A DNA stretch of 64,000 nucleotides from Phycisphaerae bacterium. GTDB lineage: Bacteria; Planctomycetota; Phycisphaerae; SM23-33. The stretch spans positions 42,097-106,096 of the forward strand of contig WRDM01000002.1 of assembly GCA_009783465.1 (NCBI GenBank). Direction: 5' to 3'. The translations under genes were made by a program, and so were the position numbers. A model generated the notes under the pieces. The model was not told the DNA's origin and made no database searches. It saw nothing but the letters and a program-made list of their open reading frames with translations. Numbering within the stretch: the first letter of the stretch is position 1; each line of letters begins with the position of its first letter. Below, one piece after another: positions 14,091-62,256 of the stretch.

Positions 14091-14142
14091 CAATCAGGAC
14101 AATCGCATGTGCATGCCTTATTCCACACAGGATTCGCATTTC

Positions 14143-14254
14143 GGCGCCACTGGCCACAGGCCCTGCCATTTTGCGTTGTCGATCGTTGTGACAGACGAAG
14201 CGTTCAGTCGCTCACACCGTCTTACAACGCAAAATGGCAGGGCCTGTGGCCAGT
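14143..14254. repeat. large perfect-ish palindrome (BPAL family, 'ggcgccactggccacaggccctgccattttgcgttg...caacgcaaaatggcagggcctgtggccagtg')
   Basis: ~35-bp arms around ~40-nt core; family copies at 34674, 36198, 62041 and shorter variants at 19001, 33165, 58334. Confidence 0.8.
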
Positions 14255-14347
14255 GATGCCGAGTACGAAGGTCACGCGAAAACCGGAAAATATACATGCG
14301 TTCGCCCTGGAGTAGCCATCACCTATACTGTATTGGGGGAGCGTCGC

Positions 14348-19000: not shown

Positions 19001-19090
19001 GATGGCTCCGCCGGTTTGCGCTGTAGAACGTTGTGGACTACAAAACATTTTTTTGTACGCAACGTTCTACAACGCAAACCGGCGGAGCCA
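19001..19090. repeat. palindrome (short BPAL variant: gcgatggctccgccggtttgcgctgtagaacg...cgttctacaacgcaaaccggcggagccat)
   Basis: Between murG and ftsW; related copies at 33165-33230 and 58334-58423. Confidence 0.8.
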
Positions 19091-20402: not shown

Positions 20403-20500
20403 TCGATGGACTGTTTTCAGCGGCTTGCCTCTTTGCGCAGCAGGATATTAAAAACTAAAAACGTTTCGGTTCACCCATCCTACGGCGCAAAGAGGCAAGC
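20403..20500. repeat. palindrome cagcggcttgcctctttgcgc...gcgcaaagaggcaagccc
   Basis: IR arms at 20403-20430 and 20470-20500; half-copy at 16662-16700. Confidence 0.65.
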
Positions 20501-20569
20501 CCTTACGAAATATCCACCGCATACCCACGTCTACATTTCTGTACCCTCTGTGTCTCTGTGGTAAAAAGA

Positions 20570-21727: not shown

Positions 21728-21731
21728 TCTC

Positions 21732-23465: not shown

Positions 23466-23704
23466 CCGCTTGATTCTTTTAGCCCCGGCAGGGGCGCCTT
23501 GGGTAGCCCAGGGTGAGCCGTACTCGGCGAACCCTGGGGACAAGGCGTTTCATTCCGTCCAAGCCCCGTAGGGGCGCCTTGGATTCTCGCAACCTCCAAG
23601 GCGCCCCTGCCGGGGCTTTTTCTTCTTGGGCCGCTATCCCAGGGTTCGCGGAGTACCGCTCACCCTGGGCTACCCAAGGCGCCCCTTCCGGGGCTTGATA
23701 CCGG
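23466..23704. repeat. complex inverted repeat in murF-murE spacer (arms gccccggcaggggcgccttgggtagcccagggtgagccgtactcggcgaaccctgg / ccagggttcgcggagtaccgctcaccctgggctacccaaggcgccccttccggggc with inner hairpin)
   Basis: ~55-nt arms at 23466-23530 and 23640-23704; partial copy at 3518-3556. Confidence 0.75.
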
Positions 23705-23759: not shown

Positions 23760-25304
23760 TCATCGTTTCACCAACATCTCGCGCACCACTTCGGCATCAT
23801 CAAAATGATGTTTGGTTTCCTCGACAATCTGGTACGTTTCGTGCCCTTTGCCGGCTAACAAAATCACGTCGCCTTCGCGGGCGTGCTGAATCACCCGCTC
23901 GATCGCCTTGCGGCGGTCGGGTTCGACGTGCGTTTTGGCCAGGCCTGCCGGTGTGAAGCCGGCGAGGATTTCGTCGATGATCGCGCGGGGGTCTTCCGTT
24001 CGCGGGTTGTCGCTGGTGACGACGACGGCGTCAGCAAGTTCTTCTGCCACGCGGGCCATCCGAGGCCGTTTGAGTCGGTCGCGATCGCCGCCACAGCCGA
24101 ACATCACGATCAGCCGCCCCCGCGTCACGGGCCTGACCGCCGACAGCACGTTCGCCATCGCGTCGTCCGTATGAGCGTAATCCACGTACACCGTGAACGG
24201 CGCGTCCACCGGCACGCGGTCAAGCCGCCCCGGCACGCGAACGCCCTTCGTCAACGTCGAGGCGATCACGTCCCACGACACGCCCAACCCGCGACAAATA
24301 CCCGCCGCCGCGAGACCGTTCCGCACGTTGTGCTTGCCGATCAGCGGGCTGGCAATCATGATCTCACGTGACGCGGGCGTCTCGCCTGCGTTGTGCGTGC
24401 CATGGGATTGGCCATTAGAAGACGTCAAACCGTCTTCGCCCGACGCGGGCAAGATACCCGCGTCACGCATCACAAACTCCGTGCCGCGGTCGCTGATGTC
24501 GCGAATCACAGCGCCGAGCGTTCTCGGCCCGTCCAGGCCGTAACTCACCACACGGCCTCGCGTCACCGCCGCCATCGCCTCGCCCGACGGATCGTCAAAA
24601 TTAATCACCGCCGTCGCGGAGGCGGGCAACTCCGCAAAGAGAATCCGCTTGGCCGCGAGATAATTCGCCATCGTCTTGTGATAGTCCAAATGCTCGCCGG
24701 TCAAATTCGTGAACGCCGCCGCCGCGTACTCCACGCCGGCCACCCTGCCCTGATCCAGCGCGTGCGACGACACCTCCATCACCAGGTGCGTTCGACCGGC
24801 CTGTACCATCTCGGCCATCATCTCCGCCAAGTCCACCGCGCCGGGCGTGGTGTTGTTGGCCTCGACGCTGGTTTTTCCGGTTTCGTAGGCAATCGTGCCC
24901 AGCAGCGCCGGCCGATGGCCCGCCGCCTCCAGGATCGCCCGCACCAGCAGCGTGATGGTGCTTTTTCCCTTCGTGCCCGTCACGCCGATGTTGATCAACT
25001 TCCGCGCCGGCCAGCCGTGAAACGCCTGCGCCATCGGCCCGAGCGCCCGCGCGGAACTCGACACCACAGCCCACGGCACGGACGCGGGCACGGCAGCGGC
25101 ATCCTCGCACACCACCGACGTCGCCCCGCCCGCCAACGCCGCCGCGATAAAATCATGCCCATCCACCACAGGCCCGCGCACGGCCACGAAACACGCCCCC
25201 GCGGCGCAGCGTCGCGAGTCGCTCACCAGCGAGGCCACAGGCCCGTCGCCGCGGCGAACGACCACGTCCACCCCCGCCGATGCCAACAATTCCGACAGAC
25301 GCAT
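23760..25304 (-). CDS. murE: UDP-N-acetylmuramoyl-L-alanyl-D-glutamate--2,6-diaminopimelate ligase, carrying in-frame palindromic element
   Basis: Mur ligase domains (GVTGTKGKSTIT P-loop, DNPRTEDP); internal ...SSNGQSHGTHNAGETPASREIMIA... encoded by element at 24364-24469. Confidence 0.85.
   Translation of the reverse strand: MRLSELLASAGVDVVVRRGDGPVASLVSDSRRCAAGACFVAVRGPVVDGHDFIAAALAGGATSVVCEDAAAVPASVPWAVVSSSARALGPMAQAFHGWPARKLINIGVTGTKGKSTITLLVRAILEAAGHRPALLGTIAYETGKTSVEANNTTPGAVDLAEMMAEMVQAGRTHLVMEVSSHALDQGRVAGVEYAAAAFTNLTGEHLDYHKTMANYLAAKRILFAELPASATAVINFDDPSGEAMAAVTRGRVVSYGLDGPRTLGAVIRDISDRGTEFVMRDAGILPASGEDGLTSSNGQSHGTHNAGETPASREIMIASPLIGKHNVRNGLAAAGICRGLGVSWDVIASTLTKGVRVPGRLDRVPVDAPFTVYVDYAHTDDAMANVLSAVRPVTRGRLIVMFGCGGDRDRLKRPRMARVAEELADAVVVTSDNPRTEDPRAIIDEILAGFTPAGLAKTHVEPDRRKAIERVIQHAREGDVILLAGKGHETYQIVEETKHHFDDAEVVREMLVKR
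24364..24469 (+). repeat. in-frame palindromic element (IPE family) inside murE (opposite orientation to host gene)
   Basis: TCACGTGACGCGGGCGTCTCGCCTGCGTTGTG...GACGCGGGCAAGATACCCGCGTCACG. Confidence 0.85.
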
Positions 25305-25310
25305 GTTTTC

Positions 25311-25400
25311 GTTAACTGGTGAACTCGTTAACTCGTTAACTGGTTAACTCGTTGGCGCACGTCGCAACTTCACGAGTCAACCAGTTAACGAATCAACGAA
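25311..25400. repeat. GTTAAC-rich palindromic repeat
   Basis: gttaactggtgaactcgttaactcgttaactggttaactcgttgg...cgagtcaaccagttaacgaatcaacg. Confidence 0.75.
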
Positions 25401-25523: not shown

Positions 25524-25716
25524 CAAGCCACTAGCCATCAGCCACTAGCCACCAGGGTTTTCGTGACTCGGCTGTAAAATCGCTCCTCCTGTTCGAGAGA
25601 GTGATCTCGTGGCTTCGCTGACTCGTAGATCAATTCTCACACGCACACCAGCAGTATGCCCTGGCTTCTGGAAAGCTTCGCCCTACCTTGTGGCTTGTGG
25701 CTAGTGGCTTGTGGCT
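25524..25716. repeat. divergent OPH-type element (gccactagccatcagccactagccacc...ccttgtggcttgtggctagtggcttgtggctg)
   Basis: Shares arm motifs with OPH family but core not conserved. Confidence 0.55.
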
Positions 25717-27751: not shown

Positions 27752-27896
27752 AAGCCAGTAGCCAATAGCCAGTAGCCACAAGGTATGGTAAAGCCTGTTA
27801 CGAATCATCCGATCTTGAACTTCGCCACGTTCGTGTCTATTCCCGCTTTCACTGCCATTTCGCCACCGACGTTCCTTACCTTGTGGCTAGTGGCTG
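27752..27896 (-). repeat. operon-hairpin element (OPH family), reverse orientation, between ftsI and ftsL-like gene
   Basis: Reverse complement aligns with forward copies (..ggtaaggaacgtcggtggcgaaatggcagtgaaagcgggaataga...ctttaccataccttgtggctactggc). Confidence 0.85.
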
Positions 27897-28292: not shown

Positions 28293-28436
28293 AGCCAGTA
28301 GCCATCAGCCAATAGCCAGTAGGTATGGCCACGCCTGATGTCGATCACACGATCCAGATCTTGGCTACCTGTACACCCGTTCCCGCTGCCGCTGCCATTT
28401 CGCCGACGTCGTGCCGTACCTATTGGCTACTGGCTA
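28293..28436 (-). repeat. operon-hairpin element (OPH family), reverse orientation
   Basis: acagccagtagccatcagccaatagccagtaggtatggccacgcctgatgtcgatcacacgatcc...gttcccgctgccgctgccatttcgccgacgtcgtgccgtacctattggctactggctac. Confidence 0.85.
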
Positions 28437-28445
28437 CATCAACCG

Positions 28446-30430: not shown

Positions 30431-30575
30431 GTCGCTGACAACGAAGCGACAAGCGACTGGTGACAAACGACAAGAGAAGGCAACGTTTTTCGTATTCGTC
30501 GTTCTCGCGACAAGCCATCGCTCTGAAAGACAAGACACTCCTGCTCCAGTCGCTTGTCACCTGTCGCTTGTCGCT
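30431..30575. repeat. 'gacaagcgac' palindromic repeat (gacaacgaagcgacaagcgactggtgacaaacgacaag...cagtcgcttgtcacctgtcgcttgtcgc)
   Basis: Second copy at 49805-49935. Confidence 0.75.
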
Positions 30576-31685: not shown

Positions 31686-32777
31686 TTAACGACGCCGTCG
31701 CAGCAGCGCCAGGCCGCCCAGGGCCAGCAGGCTCATCGTCACCGGTTCGGGAATCGGCGCGCCGAACAGTTGCACCTCGTTGATGTAGTTCGCGCTGCCG
31801 CCACCGTCCACCATCGTCAGCATGATGGCCGTGCCGATGATGCCTTCGGACAAATCGAAATAGCCATACAAAACCGGCAGAAACTGCGTCGTCGTGCCGT
31901 CGGCGAACGTCACGGGATGCCACGCGTCGTCGTCGCCGTTGCGATAGAACAGATTGAACGTCGCCGTCGCGCTGTTATAACCCGTTCCCGCCCCGGACAG
32001 GCCCAGCTTGGTGAATTCATACTCGACGCCGTTGGTGAAGTTCACGATGAAGCCCTTGCCCGCCTCGTTGAGGCTGTACATCACCGTTCGGCCCAGTGGG
32101 TTGTACGCGTCGTCCACAAAGCCGAGGTTGGGGCTGATGGCAACGCCGCCCACTGGTGTGATCGTCACCGCCGGCGAGCCGGGCGTCGCGCCCGCCAGGC
32201 CGGTGCTGGAAATCAAGTCGATGTTGTTGTTCTTCGGGCTGAGCGTGCCCACGTCGCCGAACACGCGGATGCCATGGATAATCATCCGGCCAGGCTCGTT
32301 CCCTCCGGGGCCGTTTTGATATCCGGTCGGGACAATTTGCAGATGCCGCGTGTCCAGCCCGCCCTCGGTCTTCAACACCAGGGTGCCCGTGCCCGAAGCA
32401 TACGAATATTCGCACTCGACGGGAATCGTGAACGTCACGCCGCCGTCGTTACTCGCGAACACGTCAAAGCTGCTGGCCTGATACCCGGCCCAGTAGTGCA
32501 GGCGGATCGTCTTGATGTTCTGGACTTCGCCGAAATCGAAGGTGATATCGTTGTCATAGGCATGGGCGCTGTCGCGATATTCGTAGGAAATGGCCTCGCT
32601 GTAGATCCGCCAACTGGTCGCCGGCATCGTTCCGTACGCCGAGGTAATCTTCAGATCCGGGTTCCATGTATTGAGAATGTTCACATTCTCCCGATGGTCG
32701 AAAATCGCCGCCACGGCGCTGCCACACCACGCCAATGACACTGCCGCCACGAGAACCGTCGAAATGAGAATACGCAT
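31686..32777 (-). CDS. PEP-CTERM sorting-domain secreted protein
   Basis: Signal peptide MRILISTVLVAAVSLAWCGSAVA; C-terminus PIPEPVTMSLLALGGLALLRRRR (PEP motif, TM, basic tail). Confidence 0.7.
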   Translation of the reverse strand: MRILISTVLVAAVSLAWCGSAVAAIFDHRENVNILNTWNPDLKITSAYGTMPATSWRIYSEAISYEYRDSAHAYDNDITFDFGEVQNIKTIRLHYWAGYQASSFDVFASNDGGVTFTIPVECEYSYASGTGTLVLKTEGGLDTRHLQIVPTGYQNGPGGNEPGRMIIHGIRVFGDVGTLSPKNNNIDLISSTGLAGATPGSPAVTITPVGGVAISPNLGFVDDAYNPLGRTVMYSLNEAGKGFIVNFTNGVEYEFTKLGLSGAGTGYNSATATFNLFYRNGDDDAWHPVTFADGTTTQFLPVLYGYFDLSEGIIGTAIMLTMVDGGGSANYINEVQLFGAPIPEPVTMSLLALGGLALLRRRR

Positions 32778-32951
32778 AACCACTCCTTTACGATGCACAT
32801 AAACGGAAAATGAATGCCGCGCCACGAAGGCCGACTCTATATATCGTACCACAGCATGCCAACACGTCAAGGCCGCGAATGAAGAAATCGGGGCCATCGC
32901 ATCTAAATTCCTTCATTTTCGTATGATTTTCCGCAAAGGGCCGTTTTTGAA

Positions 32952-33055
32952 GGCTGTTAGACTGTTAGGCTGTTAGGGAGAGGCTTATGGAAAATTAGGC
33001 CCAATCTCACATCAGCCGGCGCCTAACAGTCTAACAGCCTAATAGTCTAACAGTC
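32952..33055. repeat. 'ctaacag' palindromic repeat (aggctgttagactgttaggctgttaggg...cctaacagtctaacagcctaatagtctaacagtct)
   Basis: Inverted tandem arrays of GYTGTTAG units flanking ~40 nt. Confidence 0.75.
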
Positions 33056-33087
33056 TCTTGTACGAAAAAATGGGCGAATGTAGATGC

Positions 33088-33292
33088 GATGGCCCTGTGA
33101 AGAAATCAGGACGAACGCAGGTAAAATTCCAATGATTCGTGTGGGATTCGGGTTTGGCGGGAGTCGCCGCAGGCTTGCCGTTTTGCGCTGTAGAACGTTC
33201 GGAACAGCGCAAAACGGCAAGCCTGCGGCCATTCACGCCAAACCCGAAAAACGAACAAATATACATGCGTTTTCCCTGTGAAGAAATCACGC
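33088..33292. mobile_element. MITE-like composite element with 16-bp flanking direct repeats (ccctgtgaagaaatca) around a short BPAL palindrome
   Basis: Direct repeat at 33088-33103 and 33276-33291; internal IR cgccgcaggcttgccgttttgcgctgtagaacg/cgttc..gcgcaaaacggcaagcctgcggc at 33165-33230; no ORF. Confidence 0.5.
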
Positions 33293-33359
33293 CCGCAAAG
33301 CACAACGCCCGCAGCCATCGGCCACGGGCGTTGTGAAATGTGAACGAATGGGCAACGTT

Positions 33360-34520
33360 CTACCGCCGCCGTCGCAGCAGCGCCAGGCCGCCCAGGGCCA
33401 GCAGGCTCATCGTCGCCGGCTCGGGAATCGGATGAATATTGAACGTTTCCGTCAGATGGATCCCGATGCCGTTGCTGCTGACGGGGACGAATGCTTCCAG
33501 GTCCCCGTCCCACACGGTGGGCATCGCGTCGTACGGAACCATGATCCGCAGGCCGGTCACGCCCGTCAGGTCGCCCAGATCGTTATAGTACCACTTCGAT
33601 ACTGCGCCGTTGATGTTCAGTTCGGAGTAGAACGTCCCCGCGTTCAGCCAGCCTTGCGAATCTTCCGTCTGGTATTGGACCACCCAGTAACTCGGGATCG
33701 CCCGATCGCCGTTGTCGGAATTGGCCCGCCATGCGATGGAAAGGAGGTTGATGTCTTCCGGGGTGCTGAACGTCCGATCAACGAAGAAGAAATCGTGTCC
33801 CGCGTCGATGTTCGCCGCGATGCTCTGGGACAGCCAACGGTACTGACCGAGGGAGTCAAGACCACTCGCGCCCGCTCCGCCGATATTGGAACTGGCCAGC
33901 CAGCCGGTGGAACTGGGCTTTACCTGCTGGCTTTCGAGCGTGCCGCCGATGTCGCCGAACACGTCCATTTCGCCCAGCGAACGACGGTTGTCGCCACCGG
34001 GCGGTGTGCCGTAGGTCACGCGAACCCGGAGGCCCGCCGTCGTGTAGGCCTGTCCAAGGTCGACGCCATGAACCAAAACCTGCGCCAGGGCGCCGAAGTC
34101 GCTGCTGTCATATCGCTCCACCCAAACCCAACTATTCGGATCGTTCACGTCGCAGCCAGGCGCGAGCGTGTCCACACAGATATTCGTAATCCAGCCGCCC
34201 CAGTTCCAGTCCGCGAACAGCCGCAACACGCGGATATCCTGCGGCGTGTTCCATAGCATGTACGGTTCGAGCGAGGGCTGAGCGGGATCAGGATTCTCGT
34301 CGGTGGGCCTGATGTACTGGACCTGCGGCGCGTTGTTGTCGTGCCCCCACGACCAGATGGACCGGTCGGCGATATTCCGCACTTGTCCATTCGACAACGG
34401 GTGATCCACGCCGAAATGATCCGCCGACCAGGCAAGGCTGTCCAACGCCTGGACGCCGGGACCAAACGACAACGCCGCCACGGCAAGAACAACCAAAATA
34501 CGATTACGCATGACCACCAC
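33360..34520 (-). CDS. PEP-CTERM sorting-domain secreted protein (tandem paralog of 31686..32777)
   Basis: Signal peptide MRNRILVVLAVAALSFGPGVQA; C-terminus IHPIPEPATMSLLALGGLALLRRRR; the last ~75 nt and the 3' flank are near-identical at DNA level to the upstream paralog. Confidence 0.7.
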   Translation of the reverse strand: MVVMRNRILVVLAVAALSFGPGVQALDSLAWSADHFGVDHPLSNGQVRNIADRSIWSWGHDNNAPQVQYIRPTDENPDPAQPSLEPYMLWNTPQDIRVLRLFADWNWGGWITNICVDTLAPGCDVNDPNSWVWVERYDSSDFGALAQVLVHGVDLGQAYTTAGLRVRVTYGTPPGGDNRRSLGEMDVFGDIGGTLESQQVKPSSTGWLASSNIGGAGASGLDSLGQYRWLSQSIAANIDAGHDFFFVDRTFSTPEDINLLSIAWRANSDNGDRAIPSYWVVQYQTEDSQGWLNAGTFYSELNINGAVSKWYYNDLGDLTGVTGLRIMVPYDAMPTVWDGDLEAFVPVSSNGIGIHLTETFNIHPIPEPATMSLLALGGLALLRRRR

Positions 34521-34673
34521 TCCTTATGGTTTGAAACGCCGACAATGCAATAACGAAAATGGAGGACACCCTGATTGTACCCCGTCTGGCCAAAACGTCA
34601 AGCGGCGAAATGGGCGGATTCAGGGCAAACGCATGTGTATTTTCCGGTTTGCTACGTGACCTTTGTGGTTGGC

Positions 34674-34786
34674 GTGACTGGCCGCAGGCCCTGCCCGTTT
34701 GCGTTTCAAACGTCGCCATGGGCCGAGTTCTCCGCTTTTACCACGTTCTACAACGCAAACTGGCAGGGCCTGCGGCCAATCACGCC
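34674..34786. repeat. large palindrome (BPAL family)
   Basis: gtgactggccgcaggccctgcccgtttgcgtttcaaacg...cgttctacaacgcaaactggcagggcctgcggccaatcac; flanked by outer IR cagggcaaacgcatgtg / acattgcgtttgccctg (34621-34860). Confidence 0.8.
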
Positions 34787-34868
34787 ACGTGCGAAAATCA
34801 GCGAACAGCCAGGGAAACTACATTGCGTTTGCCCTGTGGGCGGTTTTTATGTGGCGGGGCGGGGCGGT

Positions 34869-36113
34869 TCAGTCCTGGCCCATCATCTCGAGATAGAGTT
34901 TTTCGTGGGCGGCGACCATGGTATCGACGGCGAAGGTTTCGGCGCGGCGGCGGGCGACGGTGGCCATGTGACGGCGGAGTGGCGTGTCGTGGGCGAGGCG
35001 TATCATGGCCTCGGCGAGGGCGGCAGGGTTTTCGGGCGGGATGAGCAGGCCGGTTTGGCCGGGGAGCATGACGTCGCGGAGTCCCTCGACGTCGGTGGCG
35101 ATCACGGGCAGCGAGGCGGCCATCGCTTCGACCGCCGACAGGCCAAACCCTTCCCAGCGGCTTGGCATGACCAGGAAATCGCCCGCAGAGTACAGGCCCG
35201 CGATCTCGTCAACAAACCCCGGAAACACCACCCGTACCGCCCCGTCGGCAGGCTGATTCCGCACAAATTCCTCGACCATCCCCTGCCAAGGCCCCTGCCC
35301 GGCGATGGCAACGACAAGCCGGGCCCGTGACGCGGGCGTCTCGCCCGCGTTGTGTGATCCATAGGCCTGGCCGTTAGAGGACGAACAAGCGTCTTCGCCT
35401 CCAGACGCGGACGAGACATCCGCGAGACACGCGGGCAAGATGCCCGCGTCACGTGGCCCCAACCGCTGGGCCGCCAGCGGCAACGCCTGGAGCAGAATGT
35501 CCAGCCCCTTCTGATCACATAACCGGCCGGCCCAGACGGCCAACCGATCCGCCTCGCCGACGCCAAGCCGCTCCCGCCACGCCAAGCCTCGCGACGCGTT
35601 CCGTGCATACGCGGCCAGGTCGATGCCGTTTTCGATCGTCACGCACCGCCGGGGCGAAATCCCCGACCGCCGAATGTGGTCCGCCCGCACGCTCTCCGAC
35701 ACGCACACGACAGGCCCGCGACGCTGGAACAGCCGACCGTACAGACTCCGCCACGGCAGAAACCGCCGCTCGGCTACGTGAACGGTGTGGGCCACGCGCG
35801 GCACGCCCGCCAGCCTCGCCGCCAGCCGCCCGGCCAGGTCGGCGTGGAACAAATGCGTGTGCACCATATCAAACCGCCCCGCCGCCAGCCATCGCGACAG
35901 CTCGCGAACCTTCAGCACGTCCCACTTGCCCGCCACGCCGAGCACGAACACCTCCACGCCGGCATCGCGAAGCCGCTCAGCGACGGCCCCGCCACGCAAC
36001 GCCGCCACACTCACACCAAACCGCGACCGGTCCAGCCGCGTCGCCAACTCATACACCACCCGCTCGGCGCCGGCGGGGGCAAGCTCGGTGATCATTTCAC
36101 ACACGCGAATCAT
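34869..36113 (-). CDS. GT4-family glycosyltransferase carrying in-frame palindromic element
   Basis: GT-B fold group-1 glycosyltransferase motifs (EGFGLSAVEAMAASLPVIATDVEG); internal ...ASGGEDACSSSNGQAYGSHNAGETPASRARLVV... encoded by element 35325-35456. Confidence 0.7.
   Translation of the reverse strand: MIRVCEMITELAPAGAERVVYELATRLDRSRFGVSVAALRGGAVAERLRDAGVEVFVLGVAGKWDVLKVRELSRWLAAGRFDMVHTHLFHADLAGRLAARLAGVPRVAHTVHVAERRFLPWRSLYGRLFQRRGPVVCVSESVRADHIRRSGISPRRCVTIENGIDLAAYARNASRGLAWRERLGVGEADRLAVWAGRLCDQKGLDILLQALPLAAQRLGPRDAGILPACLADVSSASGGEDACSSSNGQAYGSHNAGETPASRARLVVAIAGQGPWQGMVEEFVRNQPADGAVRVVFPGFVDEIAGLYSAGDFLVMPSRWEGFGLSAVEAMAASLPVIATDVEGLRDVMLPGQTGLLIPPENPAALAEAMIRLAHDTPLRRHMATVARRRAETFAVDTMVAAHEKLYLEMMGQD
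35325..35456 (+). repeat. in-frame palindromic element (IPE family) inside GT4 glycosyltransferase gene
   Basis: CCGTGACGCGGGCGTCTCGCCCGCGTTGTG...GACGCGGACGAGACATCCGCGAGACACGCGGGCAAGATGCCCGCGTCACGTG. Confidence 0.85.
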
Positions 36114-36197
36114 ATCGACGAATCATACCGGAGAACGCGACCGCTAGCCAACAGGCAGGGAAAACGCACAGGCGAACGCGTATGCGCTCCTCTTGCA

Positions 36198-36345
36198 CGC
36201 CCTTCGCCTTCAGGCGCCACTGGCCACAGGCCCTGCCAGTTTGCGTTGCAGATCGTTGTGACAACCGAAGCGTTCTGTCGCTCACGACGTTTTACAACGC
36301 AAACTGGCAGGGCCTGTGGCCAGTGGCGCCTGAAGGCGAAGGGCG
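36198..36345. repeat. large near-perfect palindrome (BPAL family, 148 nt)
   Basis: gcccttcgccttcaggcgccactggccacaggccctgccagtttgcgttg...caacgcaaactggcagggcctgtggccagtggcgcctgaaggcgaagggcg. Confidence 0.85.
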
Positions 36346-36357
36346 ATAGTGAAACAA

Positions 36358-36392
36358 AAAAGGGCCGCAGCCTCCTGAGGCTGCGGCCCCTG
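36358..36392 (-). terminator. rho-independent terminator for PEP-CTERM gene 36483..37712
   Basis: Minus-strand GGCCGCAGCCUCAGGAGGCUGCGGCC stem-loop followed by CUUUUUUGUUUC. Confidence 0.6.
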
Positions 36393-36482
36393 CGAACTTC
36401 CTGAGACCCTGCGAGGTAGGCGTCAGGAGCCGGCCCTGTGGAGGCCGTTTCGCGGTTGTGGCTGATGTGGCCCCTGGCCGCA

Positions 36483-37712
36483 TCAGACGATTCGACGACG
36501 GCGGCTCAGCATCGCCACCCCGCCCACCGCCAGCAACGCCATCGTCGCCGGCTCGGGAATGTACGCGGGGTCCCTGCCCATCACCACGAAGCCGTCATAG
36601 TCGTTCAGGTTGTTGCTGACGAACGTCAGTGTTCCGTCGGATTCATACATGAAGACGTCCGGCACGAACTGCACCCATCCTTCGCCGTCGGCGTTGGTGT
36701 AGTGCTGCCAGAACACAAGGTTCTCCACGTCCTGGCCAAGACCGATGTTGATCGTGAACGCGGCCTGGGCGTCGATGGCGATGTCATACCACCAGCCCGA
36801 CAACACGACGGAATCCGTGTCCGGCGCCCGCACGACATCGCGTTCGGCCTGCGACAGCACGTTGAACGTCGCCTGGAATTGCGCCATGCCGTTTTTGCCT
36901 TCCGAGTTGTACGTCAACTTCTGGCCGGTGGCGGTGTCGGTGATGACGACCCGATCGCCCCAGTACATCTGGAACGCCTGGCCCGTCTGGCCTGTTTGCA
37001 TGGCCGTGAGGACGCTAAAGCTCCCGCCGTTCAAGTATGCGGTCCATACGCCGCCAAAGGTTTTGACCGGCACATCCAGCAGGCCCGTGGGGCTCTTAAT
37101 GGGCTGATAGATTTTACCACTGGCCAGCGTGCTGTCGGCGATCAGAAACGTCGTTCCGAACATGCCGTTGAGCGACTCCACCGTCAACTGATTGTTGCCC
37201 GTGACCTTGATCCCAAGCCGACCCTGTCCGCCAACCGCCAATTCCTTGGTCGTCAACGTCGCCCCTCCGGACAATGTCAGCATGGCACCGTATTGACCGG
37301 ATTCTCCACTGCCCGAGGCTTCCACATGCACTTTGTTGGCGTTCAGATGCGTGCCAGCACCGTCCAGACGAACCGACGCCACCGACGCCCGATCGCCAAT
37401 GAACGAGACCGCCATCAATGAATCGATATTCATCGTGGCGCCGCCAAGCACGTGCATCCAACTGTCGCTGGAATACAAATAGATCCTGTGGGCCGGGCCG
37501 TTCCAGGCCGACCCAGGCCCCTGGACCGTCACCGTAGTCGGGCCGCTGGGACTGATGCCCAGGTAGATGTCGGATGTCTGGTCATAGACAAACCCGTCAT
37601 CGACCACGATGTCGTTCCCTGTTGCCGCCCATGCCGGCTGAGCCAACATCAACAACAGCGCCAAGGAAATCACGGCGAAACCAGGAATCATTCTATACTT
37701 ACGACTATTCAT
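36483..37712 (-). CDS. PEP-CTERM sorting-domain secreted protein
   Basis: Signal peptide MIPGFAVISLALLLMLAQPAWA; C-terminus IPEPATMALLAVGGVAMLSRRRRIV. Confidence 0.7.
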   Translation of the reverse strand: MNSRKYRMIPGFAVISLALLLMLAQPAWAATGNDIVVDDGFVYDQTSDIYLGISPSGPTTVTVQGPGSAWNGPAHRIYLYSSDSWMHVLGGATMNIDSLMAVSFIGDRASVASVRLDGAGTHLNANKVHVEASGSGESGQYGAMLTLSGGATLTTKELAVGGQGRLGIKVTGNNQLTVESLNGMFGTTFLIADSTLASGKIYQPIKSPTGLLDVPVKTFGGVWTAYLNGGSFSVLTAMQTGQTGQAFQMYWGDRVVITDTATGQKLTYNSEGKNGMAQFQATFNVLSQAERDVVRAPDTDSVVLSGWWYDIAIDAQAAFTINIGLGQDVENLVFWQHYTNADGEGWVQFVPDVFMYESDGTLTFVSNNLNDYDGFVVMGRDPAYIPEPATMALLAVGGVAMLSRRRRIV

Positions 37713-38048: not shown

Positions 38049-39263
38049 TTATCGTCGACGACGGCGACTCAGCAGCGCCGCCCCGCCTGCCGCCAGCAAC
38101 AGCACCGTCGCTGGCTCGGGAATGTTCGTAGGATCCATGCCCGTCACCACGAAGCCGTCATAGTTGCTGAGATTACTGCTGATGAAGGACAGCGTTCCGT
38201 CTTTCTCATACGTGTAGAGTTCCGGCGTGAATTGCTCCCACTGGCCTGTCGTGGAACGCTGCCAGAACACAAGGCCCTCCACGTCCTGACCCACGCCGAT
38301 GTTGAGTGTAAACATGGCTTGGCTGCTGCCAATGATATCGTGCCACCAGCCGGACAGTACCGTCAGTGTGTCATCCAGCGCCCGCACCGCGTCGAGTTCC
38401 GACTGTGACATCACGCTGAACACCGTCTGGATCGTCCCTGGGGTGCTGCTCCATTCAGCGCTGTACGTCAACTGTTTTCCGGTAGCGGAGTCGGTGATAA
38501 CGGCCCGATCGCCATGATTCATCGCAAACGTCTGGCCTGTGGCGCCCGCCACCGCGTCGGTGACGGTAAAGTTCCCCGTCTTCGCGTCCCATGTGCCACC
38601 AAACACTCGGACAGTACCCCCCGTGTTCGTGTACGTAATCTTGACGGGCGTATACGTGCCGTTGGCCAGATTGTTGTCGGCCATCAGGAAAATGGTTCCG
38701 CATTGCAACGTGTTTATTGTCAACTGATCGTTTCCCGTGACCTTGACACCGACTCGCCCATTTCCGTAAACATTCAGGGTCCCGATGTCCGCCGTGGCTC
38801 CGCCCGTAAACGTAAGCATGCATCGGCTTGTGCTAGTGCCCACATCCACCATGCCGGCATTCAGATACGTTCCGGCACCGTCGAAACGGGCCGCCGCCTT
38901 GCCGTGATCGGGATTGGCAGCTATCGACAAATCGTTGCCGACATACATCTTGGCGCCATCAGACACATGGACAAAGCTGCTTCTCACGAGAAGTGCATAG
39001 GCCGAGCCGTTCCATACCGTGCCAGGGCCTTTTACCGTCAACAGGCACTGGCCTTCGAAACGGCCCATGTCAAATGTGCCGGTTGGACTAAAGACCGACC
39101 CGTCGTCGATCACCATGCTCCCAACACCCGTCTTGCCCATGTACAAATCGCCCACGTCGCCTTCCTTAACAATCGCCGCCCAAGTTGGCAGGGCCGACAT
39201 CATCAGCAACACCAGGATGGCCATTACGACACTCGGAACAATGTAATTTCTACGACCGTTCAT
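38049..39263 (-). CDS. PEP-CTERM sorting-domain secreted protein (paralog of 36483..37712)
   Basis: Signal peptide MNGRRNYIVPSVVMAILVLLMMSALPTWA; C-terminus IPEPATVLLLAAGGAALLSRRRRR; ~45% identity to neighbour over full length. Confidence 0.7.
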   Translation of the reverse strand: MNGRRNYIVPSVVMAILVLLMMSALPTWAAIVKEGDVGDLYMGKTGVGSMVIDDGSVFSPTGTFDMGRFEGQCLLTVKGPGTVWNGSAYALLVRSSFVHVSDGAKMYVGNDLSIAANPDHGKAAARFDGAGTYLNAGMVDVGTSTSRCMLTFTGGATADIGTLNVYGNGRVGVKVTGNDQLTINTLQCGTIFLMADNNLANGTYTPVKITYTNTGGTVRVFGGTWDAKTGNFTVTDAVAGATGQTFAMNHGDRAVITDSATGKQLTYSAEWSSTPGTIQTVFSVMSQSELDAVRALDDTLTVLSGWWHDIIGSSQAMFTLNIGVGQDVEGLVFWQRSTTGQWEQFTPELYTYEKDGTLSFISSNLSNYDGFVVTGMDPTNIPEPATVLLLAAGGAALLSRRRRR

Positions 39264-39530: not shown

Positions 39531-41486
39531 ATGGCCGACGCCTCGAAACCCGTTGCCCTCGCCGATTCCATCGCCGCCATGCCCACGCGGGGCGGAGCAT
39601 CCTTGCGGGGGGTGCTGTTGAAGGAGTTGCTCGTTGTCAGCCGGCGGGGGCGGAGTTATGTGTTGCGGGCGGCGTACCTGGTTGCGCTGGGCGTCTACGT
39701 CGTGGGCGTATATCTTTCGCTCGTGTCCGGCGACGGTGTCAGCAGTTACGACAGCTATCAGATGGCCCAACTGGGCAAAACCGTCACCGCGTACATTGTT
39801 TTCTTTCAGTTGGCCGGGGCGACGCTCGTGGCCGTCGCGCTGGCGAGCACCGCGCTGCACGAGGAGATCCGTCGCCGCACGCTGACAGCCCTGCTCGTCA
39901 CACCCTTGAGCGACTGGCAGATCGTCGTCGGCAAGCTCCTCGGCAGGCTGATGCCGCTGCTGACGCTGGTCCTGCTGATTCTCCCGCTGCTGGGCGTGGT
40001 GCGGGTCTTCGGCGGCGTGGAGTTCACGTACCTTCTCGCGGCCACGGGGTTGACGCTTTGTTGGGCGGCGTTGGCGGGCGCGTTCACGATGTACGTTTCG
40101 TTGCGTTGTCGAGGCCCGTTCGTCACCGCCGCCACGTCGGTCGGCCTGATCGCCGTCCACTGCCTGATGACGGGTTTGATGCCGGTTTGCTGCATCATGA
40201 CCATCCTGCCGGGCCTGATGGCCAATCCGTTCCTCGCGATGACGGCGTTGACGATCGATCTTCTCCATCCCGGAAGCGGCATCCTCTCCGCGTACGTGCA
40301 TACGCTGTGGCCAATCCAGTGCGTCATCATGCTCGGTTTGGCGTGGCTGTTCACGTACCTGACAGGCCAGCGGCTCCGCGTTGTCGCGGCGGAACGGCTG
40401 TTCGGCGGCGAGGTCCGCGAGGCCCCGCTCTTCGACGCGACCTCGCAACAACGCGTCCTGCACGCCCTCGGATCGACGCCCGCCGTGCTCATGCCGCCGC
40501 TGCCAGCCACGGCCTCGCCGCCACCTGCGAGCATCGCGACGGCCGCCCCACCGCCATGGCCGCTCGCCTCGCCACCGCTGCCCTACTCCGCCGAAATCCC
40601 GAGGCCTGTCCCCGCGCCGCCGGGCCCGACGCGACAACCCGACCGACGCGAGACCATCCGCTCCGTCCGCGGATCGCCCGTTCTCTGGAAAGAACTCCGC
40701 CAACAACTCCACCATCGTCTGCCGAAGTGGCTGTTCCTGGCCATCATGTTCGTCATCACCGTCACGTACACCGTGCTCATCACGACGGGCGCCATCACCT
40801 CGCGAATCACGCAGGCCTACATGATGAACATCTGGCTGGGTGTCCTGCTCGTGCCGCTGCTGTTGGCCCTGTCCAACGCGCTCGCCGGCGAACGCGAAAG
40901 TCGAAGCCTCACCGCCCTGCTCACCACGCCCCTGAGCGACTGGCGAATCCTGCGCGACAAAGCCGTCGGCGCGTTCCTGACCGCCTGGCCTGGCTGGATG
41001 ATCTTCGCCATCCACCTGATCATCTTCGGCCTGCTGGGCGTGCTGCATCCGCTCGGACTGGCGCTGGCGGGGCTGGCCATCCTCAGCGTGGTCGGGCTGC
41101 ATCTGGGCGCGGGGTTGTGGCTGGGATCAAAACTCAAACGCCCCGCCGCCGTGCTGATGGGAAACGCCCTGCTGGCCGGCACGCTCTGGGCGGGCCTGCC
41201 GGCCGTGGCGAAACTCCTCCGCCGCGTGCTGCCATGGGACGGCTGGGACACCGTGCTCCGTTCCAACCCGTTCATGCAAATCTACGTCGCGATCAAGGGG
41301 GTCCATTGGGACCCCACAACGGCGTTCAAAACCATAATCCATTTCCAATGGCCAGGCTATGATTGGCCAGACCAGGATTTCACCTTCACCGCCCTGACCA
41401 TCGTCGGCTGGTCCGCACTCTACCTCGCCGCCGCAGCCGTCATGGTCGTTCTGGCGAAACGGAATTTACGGAACGATATGCTGTAG
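39531..41486 (+). CDS. tandem-duplicated ABC-2 family transporter permease (two 6-TM halves)
   Basis: Both halves carry LLxTPLSDW(Q/R)I(V/L) signature of ABC-2 permeases (res ~90 and ~420 of ORF) with a Pro/Ala-rich linker between. Confidence 0.45.
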   Translation: MADASKPVALADSIAAMPTRGGASLRGVLLKELLVVSRRGRSYVLRAAYLVALGVYVVGVYLSLVSGDGVSSYDSYQMAQLGKTVTAYIVFFQLAGATLVAVALASTALHEEIRRRTLTALLVTPLSDWQIVVGKLLGRLMPLLTLVLLILPLLGVVRVFGGVEFTYLLAATGLTLCWAALAGAFTMYVSLRCRGPFVTAATSVGLIAVHCLMTGLMPVCCIMTILPGLMANPFLAMTALTIDLLHPGSGILSAYVHTLWPIQCVIMLGLAWLFTYLTGQRLRVVAAERLFGGEVREAPLFDATSQQRVLHALGSTPAVLMPPLPATASPPPASIATAAPPPWPLASPPLPYSAEIPRPVPAPPGPTRQPDRRETIRSVRGSPVLWKELRQQLHHRLPKWLFLAIMFVITVTYTVLITTGAITSRITQAYMMNIWLGVLLVPLLLALSNALAGERESRSLTALLTTPLSDWRILRDKAVGAFLTAWPGWMIFAIHLIIFGLLGVLHPLGLALAGLAILSVVGLHLGAGLWLGSKLKRPAAVLMGNALLAGTLWAGLPAVAKLLRRVLPWDGWDTVLRSNPFMQIYVAIKGVHWDPTTAFKTIIHFQWPGYDWPDQDFTFTALTIVGWSALYLAAAAVMVVLAKRNLRNDML

Positions 41487-41607
41487 GGTAGCGTTATTTT
41501 TACCACAGAGGCACAGAGAACCACAGAGAGAAGAGGAAAACGTCTACACTATTTCCTCTTCTCTCTGTGGTTCTCTGTGCCTCTGTGGTAAAAATAACGC
41601 TACCCTC
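41485..41607. repeat. 'ggtaaaaa/cacagag' family, full 123-nt palindrome
   Basis: agggtagcgttatttttaccacagaggcacagagaaccacagagagaagaggaaa...tttcctcttctctctgtggttctctgtgcctctgtggtaaaaataacgctaccct. Confidence 0.85.
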
Positions 41608-42293: not shown

Positions 42294-42460
42294 TTCAATT
42301 CTCCTCCACGTCCACATGAATTAATGAGTAAAACCACTCAGGATATTCCCACTATACAAGCACCCATGAGGTCCGGCAAGGGGATCGCGTCGCAACGCAG
42401 GGCGAACACGTTCCCGTGACTCGACGGTAAAATCGCATGGCCAGTTCGAGGGACCCCCTC

Positions 42461-42522
42461 GTTACCTCGTTAACTGGTTGACTCGTTAACTCGGGAAACG
42501 CCGCCAGTCAACGAGTTAACGA
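42461..42522. repeat. GTTAAC-rich palindromic repeat
   Basis: gttacctcgttaactggttgactcgttaactcgggaaacgccgccagtcaacgagttaacgaag. Confidence 0.7.
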
Positions 42523-42651
42523 AGATGTCCCCTCAAAGAAACGGCACCTGTTCACCCCGACGCCACGAGAATGCGTTTGCCCTGAATCGCTGTGTCGAAA
42601 TCTTGAACTCCCGTTATCCCTATGGTAATCTGCGTAAATTCGGAGTCTTGT

Positions 42652-48575: not shown

Positions 48576-48690
48576 ACAGGGAAACGCATGTGCGTCATCC
48601 GGTTTTTCGTGTGACCTTATATTCAGGCGCCTGAATAGGAATCCTGTGCAATCAGAAGAAGTGTACATGCATTTGCCCTGTGAATTCCGC
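48575..48690. repeat. solo outer inverted repeat of BPAL composite element (cagggaaacgcatgtgcgt...gtacatgcatttgccctg) with minimal ttcaggcgcctgaata core
   Basis: Same outer IR as around 14093-14312, 34621-34860 and 61993-62212. Confidence 0.6.
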
Positions 48691-58333: not shown

Positions 58334-58423
58334 ATGGCTTTGCCTGTTTGCGCTGTAGAACGGTGTGAGCGAAAGAATATTCTTTCGCTCACACCGTTCT
58401 ACAGCGCAAACAGGCAAAGCCAT
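58334..58423. repeat. palindrome (short BPAL variant: atggctttgcctgtttgcgctgtagaacggtgtgagcgaaagaatattctttcgctcacaccgttctacagcgcaaacaggcaaagccat)
   Basis: Perfect 40-bp arms. Confidence 0.85.
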
Positions 58424-61897: not shown

Positions 61898-62040
61898 ACG
61901 AACTCCTTGGTTCCCATTACTTTTTATATACGCCAATCGCGATACGGGCAACAGGGAAAGCGGGAAATCTCAGGCCATCGCCGTGTATTTACCCCAGGGC
62001 GAATGCGTGTGCATTTTCCAGTTTTCACGTATTTCTTCAT

Positions 62041-62170
62041 ATTCAGGCGCAATTGGCCACAGGCCCTGCCAGTTTGCGTTGCAAAACGGTATGAGCGACA
62101 GAACGCTTCGGTTGTCACAACGATCGACAACGCAAACTGGCAGGGCCTGTGGCCAATTGCGCCTGAATAT
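62041..62170. repeat. large palindrome (BPAL family)
   Basis: attcaggcgcaattggccacaggccctgccagtttgcgttgcaaaacgg...caacgcaaactggcagggcctgtggccaattgcgcctgaatat. Confidence 0.85.
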
Positions 62171-62256
62171 GAACCCCCTGTGAAAAGAGGGCTGTATATG
62201 CGTTTGTCGTGGCATTTCCTCTTGGCCAATGGCTGAAACGACGGTACCTTTTCGGC

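Follow-up and report, generated by a model that had tools for sequence, protein, structure and literature searches.

A palindromic intergenic repeat in a Phycisphaerae genome is probably an ISAs1-type MITE that shares its target with a neighboring element

Insertion sequences of the ISAs1 family carry inverted repeats of 14-22 bp that begin CAGGG, together with a 10-bp direct repeat, and repeated ISAs1 insertion into one locus has been reported (PMC11946415). Aeromonas salmonicida ISAs1, the E. coli H-repeat/YbfD/YdcC-type elements, and Frankia Francci3_2330/2941 all resemble the intergenic repeats described here in their CAGGG ends of 14-22 bp and their 8-10-bp (typically 10-bp) duplication (PMC11946415). 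Unlike these insertion sequences, our elements are only 104-217 nt long, lack an ORF, and have a long palindrome or an 8-mer module as their interior. Hairpin MITEs such as Correia/NEMIS of Neisseria, ERIC, RUP, and Nezha are closer in form, being 70-300 bp long and intergenic, with inverted-repeat ends, a target duplication, hairpin potential, and mobilization in trans (PMC3733652). However, the end sequence and duplication length of our elements indicate a different transposase family, ISAs1, and their interchangeable palindromic cargo and shared-target tandem pair are not standard for hairpin MITEs. Tn3-derived TIMEs, which belong with these MITEs, reportedly build mosaic non-autonomous elements (PMC4133298). 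A description of an ISAs1-derived MITE was not found in the literature we searched, although that search was not exhaustive.

We analyzed a 64-kb stretch of DNA, here called the window, from an uncultured member of the Phycisphaerae (Planctomycetota). A first-pass annotation had proposed a MITE-like, nested, and layered unit, a description that was essentially correct, although the anatomy had been misread in that the flanking 16-mer is composite, the left bound is wrong, and the unit's own ends were missed. The 16-bp direct repeats themselves are real: CCCTGTGAAGAAATCA has exactly two occurrences in the window, 33093-33108 and 33274-33289, with a spacing of 181 nt (the starts given earlier, 33088 and 33276, were 2-5 nt off), while dinucleotide shuffles average 0.26 matches even with three mismatches tolerated. 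The inverted repeat reported inside the unit was also recovered, with 45-nt arms at 33147-33191 and 33204-33248 that are 93% complementary. The proposal that the 16-mers are a target-site duplication survives for TGAAGAAAT(C) only, since each consists of 5 nt of element terminus (CCCTG), the 9-10-nt duplication, and 1-2 coincidental bases. Nor does the left 16-mer mark a boundary of the unit; it combines the right end of a second element, MITE A, with the duplication common to A and the palindromic unit, MITE B. An outer inverted repeat had been credited only to larger relatives, whereas B also has imperfect ISAs1-type terminal repeats.

The locus therefore reads target-A-target-B-target, with three copies of the target TGAAGAAAT (Table 1). 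The C at 32889 can be counted either as the tenth target base or as the first base of A. The end motif was matched in A at 32889-32905 (plus strand, one mismatch) and 33081-33097 (minus strand, no mismatches), and in the comparison of family ends, its right end also reads CAGGGCCATCGCATCTA, opposite CGGGGCCATCGCATCTA on the left. For B, the nhmmer family profile spans model positions 1-214 over 33278-33107 (E = 3.6e-44), and the right-end motif at 33262-33278 reads CAGGGAAAACGCATGTA. The closest copy to B, at 73% identity, lies in JGI metagenome 3300010167 (locus L007). The 172 nt of B fold into a single end-to-end hairpin, with energies of -68.4 kcal/mol for DNA (z = -13.5) and -102.5 kcal/mol for RNA (z = -12.6). 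Because its two ends agree at only ~16 of 24 positions, B may no longer be mobile.

Table 1. Features of the tandem pair, its surroundings, and related copies in the window.
Feature	Position	Strand	Basis
F5/8-type-C gene, downstream of the MITE pair	31686-32777	-	gene downstream of MITE pair
Promoter-like sites for the F5/8-type-C gene, just beyond the left end of A	32834..32870	-	consensus scan only
Target-site copy 1, TGAAGAAAT	32880..32888	.	sequence reading; flanks 9/9 in 9-bp register
MITE A, 209 nt, sister element; variant ISAs1-type ends CGGGGCCATCGCATCTA (left), TAGATGCGATGGCCCTG (right)	32889..33097	.	end-motif scan, inverted repeat
MITE A cargo: 3-4 tandem 8-mers GGCTGTTA / GACTGTTA opposite their own reverse complements, ~54 nt apart	32951..33056	.	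direct and inverted repeats
Target-site copy 2, TGAAGAAAT, common to A right end and B left end	33098..33106	.	sequence reading, flank comparison
MITE B, 172 nt; ends CAGGACGAACGCAGGT (left), ACATGCGTTTTCCCTG (right)	33107..33278	- (family-alignment orientation)	nhmmer, end motif, fold
MITE B inner palindrome, core GGCTTGCCGTTTTGCGCTGTAGAACG, 45-nt arms, 12-nt loop	33147..33248	.	inverted repeat, core motif
Target-site copy 3, TGAAGAAAT, then CA of the original flank	33279..33287	.	sequence reading, flank comparison
16-bp hairpin right after the PEP-CTERM gene stop codon, outside the MITEs	33301..33335	-	inverted repeat, gene call, Pfam
PEP-CTERM gene	33360-34511	-	gene call, Pfam match
E14, composite, 215 nt; flanks GAGTAACAAT / GAGTAGCCAT, 8/10	14095..14309	-	end motif, flanks, profile
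Palindrome-only copy without ISAs1-type ends, in the 122-nt ftsW-murG spacer	19004..19088	.	inverted repeat, core motif, profile
Diverged palindrome copy GGCTTGCCTCTTTGCGC	20410..20503	.	inverted repeat, profile
E34, composite, 216 nt, both ends and inner palindrome; flanks TGGGCGGATT / TGGGCGGTTT, 9/10	34621..34836	+	end motif, flanks, profile
E36, composite with 148-nt near-perfect palindrome (36198-36345)	36171..36361	-	inverted repeat, profile
E42, 187 nt, ISAs1-type ends round a different cargo (GTTAACTC 8-mer module)	42398..42584	.	end motif
E48, ends only, 104 nt; both ISAs1-type ends, short hairpin TTCAGGCGCCTGAA in place of the palindrome	48577..48680	+	end motif, profile
Palindrome-only copy without ISAs1-type ends, 45-nt arms 100% complementary	58336..58421	.	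inverted repeat, core motif, profile
E62, composite, 217 nt; flanks GTATTTACCC / GCATTTCCTC, 7/10	61995..62211	+	end motif, flanks, profile

The head-to-tail order of A and B, and a direct repeat that extends around the 16-mer to 43 nt at 79% identity (33066-33108 versus 33247-33289), could be explained by a local tandem duplication or by the repeat being an integral part of one larger element. We consider this very improbable, as the 43-nt likeness is that of homologous right ends on two different elements. The cargos of A and B are unrelated, and over 60 nt their ends reach only ~55% identity, where the random mean is 50 +/- 4%; in contrast, the three target copies do not differ at any of their 9-10 nt. 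Homology of the A and B ends far beyond the terminal repeat was likewise unsupported; only that repeat and perhaps ~25 nt more are alike. The other family members have different flanking duplications and none carries the 16-mer: when all copies were compared, as the first-pass annotation had proposed in order to distinguish a target duplication from a part of the element, only CCCTG recurred.

We instead favor two non-autonomous ISAs1-type transposons that would have inserted side by side, giving TGAAGAAAT-[A]-TGAAGAAAT-[B]-TGAAGAAAT. B would have entered the same target, or the target copy adjoining the end of A, or the order may have been the reverse. The predicted pre-insertion (empty) site is ...GGCCGCGAA-TGAAGAAAT-CACGCCCGC... 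Two insertions within the same 9-10 bp are unusual, and this is a single case; such a double insertion would suggest that certain sites are strongly preferred or that insertion is directed to an existing end.

Assignment to the ISAs1 family was based on the ends and flanks of the copies. The outer end motif (consensus CAGGGCAAACGCATGT) had seven matches in the window against 0.23 expected, and the terminal inverted repeats begin CAGGG; E34, E14, E62, and E48 each carry their 16-22-bp consensus, CAGGGCAAACGCATGTRYA, on both sides. In a 10-bp register, the flanks of B match at 10 of 10 positions (or 9 of 9), and those of the three composites E34, E14, and E62 at 7 to 9 of 10 (Table 1), all with different sequences. 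Under a null drawn from the window, the probability of at least 7, 8, or 9 matches was 0.008, 0.0013, and 0.0002, respectively. Outside the window, perfect 10-bp duplications flank a 78-nt copy (L017, CACCGCGTGG) and a 111-nt copy in a Tepidisphaerales MAG (L025, GCAATCTGGA). A convincing flanking duplication was not found for E48, E42 (a weak 5/10 match), L007, or L026. In short, the copies have several features of ISAs1-derived MITEs: CAGGG terminal repeats, 8-10-bp duplications that vary by copy, and short, non-coding, dispersed bodies. We therefore regard it as likely that the palindromic unit is a MITE with ISAs1-family ends, set beside a second MITE at the same 9-10-bp target. Judging by the known behavior of the ISAs1 family and of DDE transposases in general, the terminal inverted repeats would be bound by an ISAs1-family transposase produced at another place in the genome. 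This enzyme would join the element to a target cut with a 9-10-bp stagger, and repair of the gaps would duplicate the target.

A candidate source for such a transposase was found in another metagenome, where a 1308-bp insertion sequence (L008, 1513-2820) has CAGGGCAAACGCATGTACATTT as its left end and ...CACATGCGGTTGCCCTG as its right end and is flanked by a perfect 10-bp duplication, GCCTATCGCC. Its left end is identical to the terminal 16-22 nt of the MITEs and its right end is a close variant; the likeness ends after ~22 nt, and it carries none of the lineage-specific repeats. Its 383-aa ORF scored 387 bits against NF033564, "ISAs1 family transposase" (cutoff 70), and also matched PF13808 and PF01609. 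The search for a cognate transposase suggested in the first-pass annotation led to this insertion sequence, which has matching ends but is from a different metagenome and not from this genome. Pfam scans of the tested ORFs, Pfam matches of the called genes, and tblastn revealed no transposase in the window, and the ~74 kb of this genome that was read contained no autonomous ISAs1 element. A homolog search returned thousands of ISAs1 proteins, mostly on ~1.3 kb contigs, none of which could be linked to this organism.

The end motif was found at six loci in species-representative genomes, two of which are real MITEs in Phycisphaerae-class MAGs; the remaining four, with no partner end or MITE structure, look like chance matches. 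Viral contigs gave no matches to either the core or the end motif, so nothing ties the elements to phages. A protein search with the flanking gene returned the source protein itself and relatives at 65% and 39% identity only. Neither motif is present in the 65% relative (L004), whose syntenic spacers are short (36-45 bp) and free of the family, but it is too diverged to act as an empty site.

Within the window, nine copies have recognizable ends, all of them non-coding and 104-217 nt in size, and the family profile matched four full composites, one end-degraded composite, three palindrome-only copies, and one ends-only copy. The larger relatives listed in the first-pass annotation (14093-14312, 34621-34860, 36198-36345, 48575-48690, and 61993-62212) all exist, with corrected boundaries and contents. 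Of these, E14, E34, and E62 do combine the outer inverted repeat with the inner palindrome, as had been described; E48 has the outer repeat only, and the relative at 36198-36345 is bordered by degenerate or truncated ends (with CAGGCGAACGCGTATG at 36171) and has a second end-like start, CAGGGAAAACGCA, at 36156. The mention of up to 148 nearly perfect nucleotides was borne out by the E36 palindrome, whose 64-nt arms are 94% complementary. The diverged palindrome is nested in an outer inverted repeat of CACAGAGA 8-mers (20355-20567), and 8-mer modules of the kind seen in A occur at many other intergenic sites.

The inner palindrome is a separate repeat family, because some copies of it lack ISAs1-type ends, while some pairs of ends enclose no palindrome or a different cargo. 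The palindrome core, GCCnnTTTGCGYTGTAGAACG, had 13 matches in the window against 0.02 expected, and no flanking duplication was visible around the palindrome-only copies. The ISAs1-type ends would form an outer shell round a cargo, which is a 90-150-nt palindrome with a conserved core in B and four to five other window copies and a module of tandem 8-mers in A and E42.

These palindrome-only copies, and the GTAG inside the conserved core (GCGCTGTAGAACG), raised the possibility that the inner palindrome, if not the whole element, is a REP/REPIN-type repeat spread on single-stranded hairpins by a RAYT, an IS200/IS605-type tyrosine (HUH) transposase. REP, BIME, and REPIN repeats are similarly abundant intergenic palindromes with a GTAG-containing conserved motif and a possible RNA hairpin role, and GTAG-tagged REPs are known in Planctomycetes (PMC3733652). 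However, REPs measure 20-40 bp, one of their ends carries an unpaired GTAG (or CGTC) tag (PMC3733652), and they have no target duplication, whereas the palindromes in the window span 85-148 nt, with the GTAG paired near the stem apex. In addition, no Y1/HUH transposase was present among the scanned ORFs and called genes of the window and ~10 kb of flank, and the composites have DDE-type inverted-repeat ends with 10-bp duplications, which are not a product of RAYT-type movement. Spread by a RAYT is thus quite improbable. An integron attC site was considered by reading the sequence alone, which showed neither an integrase nor R'/R'' core sites.

A ~20-nt core of the palindrome is kept while the surrounding stem varies with compensation. 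Double changes were present in 10 of 25 stem pairs (31 cells), and none of the 22 outer pairs (columns 22-43) had a one-sided (G-T) change. Overall, 90.5% of cells were paired, compared to 33-44% with the partner slid by 1-3 columns. Since the double changes are strictly Watson-Crick, we infer that what keeps the arms complementary would be correction or selection acting on DNA, such as template switching in the hairpin, rather than selection on an RNA fold. Differences between copies are mirrored exactly in both arms, as in template-switch correction of quasipalindromes, a process that may apply here. L007, an almost perfect 186-nt palindrome from end to end, resembles foldback elements; in contrast, the subterminal regions of most window copies differ between the two ends, and these are not simple foldbacks.

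All family copies in the window are intergenic. The hairpin at 33301..33335 is probably the PEP-CTERM gene's own 3' hairpin, and with promoter-like sites just outside A and this hairpin outside B, the two MITEs sit between the 3' hairpin of one gene and the putative promoter of the next. This placement, together with single-arm copies just past stop codons, a copy within the dcw operon between ftsW and murG, the conserved core with its compensated stem, and extremely stable predicted hairpins, could indicate that the palindromes are host-selected as RNA hairpins, bidirectional terminators, or protein-binding cruciforms, with the ISAs1-type ends incidental. Function as an intrinsic (Rho-independent) terminator was rejected, as the stems are not followed by a T-tract and a scan of 32700-33450 found no terminator-like sites. 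No Rfam family was matched beyond sub-threshold, generic eukaryotic miRNA hairpins, and covariation without G-U intermediates, with copies in both orientations, argues against selection on one RNA strand. The 21-mer core motif, GCCNGTTTGCGYTGTAGAACG, had no exact match in 185,579 species-representative genomes, consistent with a lineage-restricted distribution like that of a selfish repeat. We therefore consider host selection with incidental ISAs1-type ends unlikely, but it is compatible with the MITE reading, as the elements could be co-opted. If transcribed, the copies are predicted to form very stable hairpins, which could affect mRNA processing or stability.

ARAGORN called a 98-nt tRNA-Ala (TGC) at 33234-33331 on the minus strand, which would make part of the region a tRNA gene and the repeats the mark of a tRNA integration site. 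The probability of this is negligible. The Rfam tRNA model gave no match there, whether the gathering score or E <= 1 was the threshold, yet it found the true tRNA-Ser at 15630-15719, the sole window match to Rfam 15 at the gathering score (32700-36500 gave only the miRNA hairpins mentioned above). The called stretch is the right end of B plus the adjoining hairpin, and 98 nt is an abnormal length for tRNA-Ala. Apart from this false tRNA call, the MITEs also misled gene annotation in a spurious ORF call (L001, 11070-11555) that overlaps E34.

A broader model, which we put forward tentatively and hold to be unlikely as a whole, is that an ISAs1-type shell carries interchangeable palindromic cargo, either the GTTTGCG-core palindrome or 8-mer modules, around Phycisphaerae genomes, with new copies favoring existing ends. 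The cargo would be a second kind of repeat, held in perfect Watson-Crick symmetry by DNA-level hairpin correction and possibly used by the host as hairpins in operon transcripts. A preference for existing ends would account for the shared-target pair and for the tandem end fragments at 36156, in L007, and upstream of E48.

Collectively, these findings are sound but fairly ordinary. Among the dense intergenic repeats of one uncultured Phycisphaerae genome, they tie one layer to a specific family and mechanism, that of ISAs1-type MITEs with 9-10-bp duplications. The double insertion, the modular shell and cargo, and the Watson-Crick covariation are small leads on how ISAs1 elements choose their targets and how long palindromes are kept up in bacterial DNA.

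The 16-mer CCCTGTGAAGAAATCA that the first-pass annotation placed at both ends of a MITE-like composite palindrome was recovered at exactly two places in the window, 33093-33108 and 33274-33289, which lie 5 and 2 nt away from the positions it had been assigned. Dinucleotide shuffles gave a mean of 0.26 matches with up to 3 mismatches. When extended, the direct repeat spans 43 nt at 79% identity and, as read from sequence, corresponds to the homologous right ends of two neighbouring MITEs, A and B, plus a shared target sequence (T). Since B ends at 33278, the CCCTG of the 16-mer represents its last 5 nt; in the left copy, CCCTG is the final 5 nt of A. The target TGAAGAAAT gives the layout T-A-T-B-T. 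It is followed by C at all three sites, and as this C is either the tenth target base or the first element base, the duplicated stretch measures 9 or 10 bp. The 16-mer is thus a target-site duplication, as proposed, in its TGAAGAAAT(C) part, while CCCTG belongs to the element terminus.

The inverted repeat noted within the unit has arms of 45 nt (33147-33191 and 33204-33248) with 93% complementarity and a 12-nt loop. Element B (172 nt) folds into a single end-to-end hairpin, both as DNA (-68.4 kcal/mol, z = -13.5) and as RNA (-102.5 kcal/mol, z = -12.6). Alignment of the copies yielded a common composite plan, in this order: flanking duplication, terminal inverted repeat CAGGGCRAACGCATGTRYA, subterminal sequence of ~25-40 nt, palindrome, mirror-image subterminal sequence, the other end (...TRCATGCGTTTGCCCTG), and the flanking duplication again. 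The palindrome combines the core GGCnnnGCCnnTTTGCGYTGTAGAACG with a variable loop. In the window, the outer motif CAGGGCAAACGCATGTG had 7 matches (0.23 expected) and the inner motif GCCNGTTTGCGYTGTAGAACG had 13 (0.02 expected). All relatives listed in the first-pass annotation exist; E48 has outer ends without the inner palindrome, and the 148-nt near-perfect palindrome at 36198-36345 has degraded outer ends.

Flanks of the copies were compared in a 10-bp register against a null taken from the window, for which P(>=7) = 0.008, P(>=8) = 0.0013, and P(>=9) = 0.0002. Composites E34, E14, and E62 matched at 9, 8, and 7 of 10 positions, with flank sequences that were unlike from copy to copy. This excludes the refuting case named in the first-pass annotation, in which the flanks would be a fixed portion of every element. 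No convincing flanking duplication was detected at E48 or E42 in this register.

Positions of MITE copies, related elements, and neighbouring features (window coordinates unless a locus is named)
Feature	Position	Characteristics
Element A	32889-33097	ends CGGGGCCATCGCATCTA and TAGATGCGATGGCCCTG
Element B, full composite	33107-33278	from CAGGACGAACGCAGGT to ACATGCGTTTTCCCTG
Target TGAAGAAAT	32880, 33098, 33279	3 occurrences
E14, full composite	14095-14309	left flank GAGTAACAAT, right GAGTAGCCAT
E34, full composite	34621-34836	left flank TGGGCGGATT, right TGGGCGGTTT
E62, full composite	61995-62211	left flank GTATTTACCC, right GCATTTCCTC
E36	36171-36361	composite with degraded ends
E48	48577-48680	ends only
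E42	42398-42584	same-type ends, other cargo
Palindrome-only copies	19004-19088, 58336-58421, 20410-20503; L002 5240-5324; two in L017	
Single-arm, non-palindromic GTTTTCAGCGGCTTGCCTCTTTGCGCTGCAGGACG subfamily	16660-16709, 61254-61296; L002 3054-3118	just 3' of stop codons
Variant-core copies	L017 1410-1479, 5345-5414	TTTGGCG for TTTGCG, compensated in both arms
End fragment in tandem with full end	36156-36186	CAGGGAAAACGCA then CAGGCGAACGCGTATG
End fragment in tandem with full end	L007 871-890	CAGGACGAA then CAGGGCGAACGC
Right-end-like CATGCCCTG	48565-48577	2 nt before E48; overlaps stop codon of PQQ-repeat gene (47034-48575)
IS in L008	L008 1513-2820	1308 bp; ends CAGGGCAAACGCATGTACATTT... 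and ...CACATGCGGTTGCCCTG
L007 MITE		186 nt; almost perfect palindrome end to end; core identical to B's; 73% identity to B overall
L017 MITE		78 nt; ends only; perfect duplication CACCGCGTGG
L005, L023 MITEs		partial composites
Tepidisphaerales MAG MITE		111 nt; perfect duplication GCAATCTGGA
Phycisphaeraceae MAG MITE		123 nt; without clear duplication
Hairpin flanking the A/B spacer	33301-33335	just past PEP-CTERM gene stop
Promoter-like sites, other side	32834-32870	for next gene
PEP-CTERM sorting signals, terminal, five adjacent genes	31687-31757, 33361-33431, 36493-36563, 38056-38126, 41620-41690	
8-mer modules	188-226, 4049-4205, 11017-11172, 12564-12725, 13746-13889, 20355-20567, 21729-21847, 25308-25400, 25526-25702, 27753-27783, 28293-28440, 30445-30575, 32951-33056, 41485-41606, 42458-42520, 49805-49935, 55976-56133; L004 5080-5318, 15664-15826, 18404-18521	
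G+C-hairpin family, ~130 nt	5995-6144, 8751-8881, 14872-15002, 24365-24467, 35321-35458, 62699-62864; L004 6813-6962; L005	
Long near-perfect inverted repeats, unrelated sequence	23481-23695; 57390-57552; 41485-41606	arms 58 nt, 95%; 36 nt, 97%; 55 nt, 100%

ISAs1-family elements have inverted repeats of 14-22 bp that begin with CAGGG, together with a direct repeat of 10 bp (PMC11946415). Scanning JGI metagenome contigs for exact CAGGGCRAACGCATGTRYAT returned at least 20 loci, and one IS was common to five of those listed (L008, L020, L021, L022, and L024). In L008 it is flanked by a perfect 10-bp duplication, GCCTATCGCC, and its 383-aa ORF matches the NCBIfam model NF033564, 'ISAs1 family transposase' (387 bits, cutoff 70), as well as PF13808 and PF01609. 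We assigned the ends to ISAs1 because their sequence, the length of the duplication, and the kind of transposase all agree. This IS has only ~22 terminal nt in common with the MITEs, and no lineage-specific repeats were seen in the sequence around it. The suggested search for a cognate transposase yielded an IS with matching ends from metagenome contigs, but no autonomous ISAs1 copy in ~74 kb of the genome (the 64-kb window and ~9.7 kb of upstream flank); Pfam scans and tblastn with an ISAs1 transposase found no transposase in the window. Same-family MITEs were present at four loci listed of metagenome 3300010167, a sample also holding L004, the closest relative of the studied organism; at 65% identity, the nearest protein-database relative is too distant to provide an empty site for comparison. 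Among the exact CAGGGCRAACGCATGTRYAT matches listed in species-representative genomes, two Phycisphaerae-class MAGs carry MITEs, and the other four lack a partner end and resemble chance matches.

Ends, duplications, copy number, lack of coding capacity, and hairpin potential were all found for the family, and on three of the five features that define such elements it counts as an ISAs1-family MITE; the other two would be an autonomous partner within the same genome and insertion polymorphism. REP/REPIN sequences are unlike the element in size, and the paired GTAG, the target duplications, and the lack of a RAYT gene nearby also ruled out that identity. A tRNA, a terminator, and a known RNA family were likewise rejected. 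A DDE transposase of the ISAs1 family, acting in trans, would bind the element ends, and insertion would proceed via a 9-10-bp staggered cut, with repair then duplicating the target. A and B would have inserted independently into one and the same 9-10 bp target, since they differ too much to be copies of each other and the internal target equals both outer ones (chance ~4^-9). Two insertions in one target would imply either that the site is strongly preferred or that insertion was directed to an end already present. In Frankia, three of four independent ISAs1-type insertions occurred at one locus (PMC11946415). Tandem end fragments at 36156-36186, in L007, and just upstream of E48 hint weakly at activity close to ends already in place.

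A profile derived from the composites picked up three kinds of copy: composites, palindrome-only copies, and the ends-only E48. Elements A and E42 share the end type and carry quite different cargo, tandem 8-mer modules, while the palindrome at 20410-20503 is enclosed by an outer inverted repeat of CACAGAGA 8-mers. The earlier description 'nested and layered' is apt, as ends, palindrome, and 8-mer modules combine differently among copies. E48 reads ATATTCAGGCGC followed directly by CTGAATA, compared to ATATTCAGGCGC, then AATTGGCC...GGCCAATTGCGC, then CTGAATA in E62. Either the palindrome was inserted into a shell or E48-type shells arose by deletion of the centre; in a palindrome, both would leave the same product. 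Palindrome-only copies had no flanking duplication, and neither the 185,579 species-representative genomes nor the viral contigs contained the exact core 21-mer. One palindrome-only copy (19004-19088, ~85 nt) takes up most of the 122-nt ftsW-murG spacer inside the conserved dcw cell-division operon, where a hairpin would be expected to affect the polycistronic transcript. At least the first variant-core copy in L017 appears to lie in G+C-rich, putatively coding sequence, and the single-arm copies may have their own role or be remnants of a deleted palindrome.

To score covariation, the two arms of 11 copies were joined via an artificial GAAA linker, giving 25 stem pairs. Paired cells amounted to 90.5%, compared to 33-44% when the partner was slid by 1-3 columns, and both-sided changes affected 10 of the 25 pairs (31 cells), with a covariation score of 0.322 against 0.143 +/- 0.022 in shuffles. 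The 22 outer pairs contained zero one-sided (G-T / G-U) changes; every change there was Watson-Crick to Watson-Crick. In selected RNA structures, G-U intermediates are normal. As these are absent and palindrome copies occur in both orientations, we infer that arm symmetry is kept at the DNA level, which could involve correction templated by the hairpin, or foldbacks formed repeatedly, as in L007. Rfam searches gave no family match, only sub-threshold generic eukaryotic miRNA hairpins.

The window is a section of the 104-kb metagenome contig k141_871801 (ENA ERZ27257304). All repeat copies are intergenic, among chromosomal genes of ordinary kinds (the dcw cell-wall cluster, cbb3 oxidase subunits, hflX, a sigma factor, M16 peptidases, ferritin, and several PEP-CTERM proteins), with A and B occupying a 582-bp spacer. 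A 98-nt tRNA-Ala(TGC) called there by ARAGORN (33234-33331, minus strand) had no match to the Rfam tRNA model even at E <= 1; it consists of the right end of B and the adjoining hairpin, and is thus a false positive from repeats. A public 161-aa ORF without a Pfam match (L001 11070-11555, window about 34559-35044) overlaps E34 and the end of a glycosyltransferase gene; it is probably a gene-calling artefact of the repeat. In the PEP-CTERM paralogue cluster, the last 71 nt of the first two genes share 94% DNA identity, pointing to a recent duplication or to gene conversion.

With the long inverted repeats of unrelated sequence, the genome holds several palindromic repeat families beyond the MITE palindrome. 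The 8-mer modules, found in many intergenic spacers, comprise 3-4 tandem 8-mers, a 20-100-nt spacer, and the same 8-mers reverse-complemented. The 8-mer varies by site (AGCCAGTA, AGCCACAA, GTTAACTC, GACAAGCG, CACAGAGA, GGCTGTTA), and some spacers are conserved (…ACAGCGGGAAC…CAGAATCGTGTG…CGCCATACC). In L004 (65% identical), modules with different 8-mers occupy syntenic spacers past a LysM gene and ftsI. A second abundant intergenic family carries the short G+C hairpins GACGCGGGCGTCTCGCCCGCG and GGGCAAGATGCCC (24 matches in the window) and is common to the relative.

Keyword searches of open-access text found no description of ISAs1-derived MITEs, nor of repeats like these in Phycisphaerae. Of note for this family are two tandem elements that share one target, cargo that is interchangeable between copies, and covariation restricted to Watson-Crick changes.
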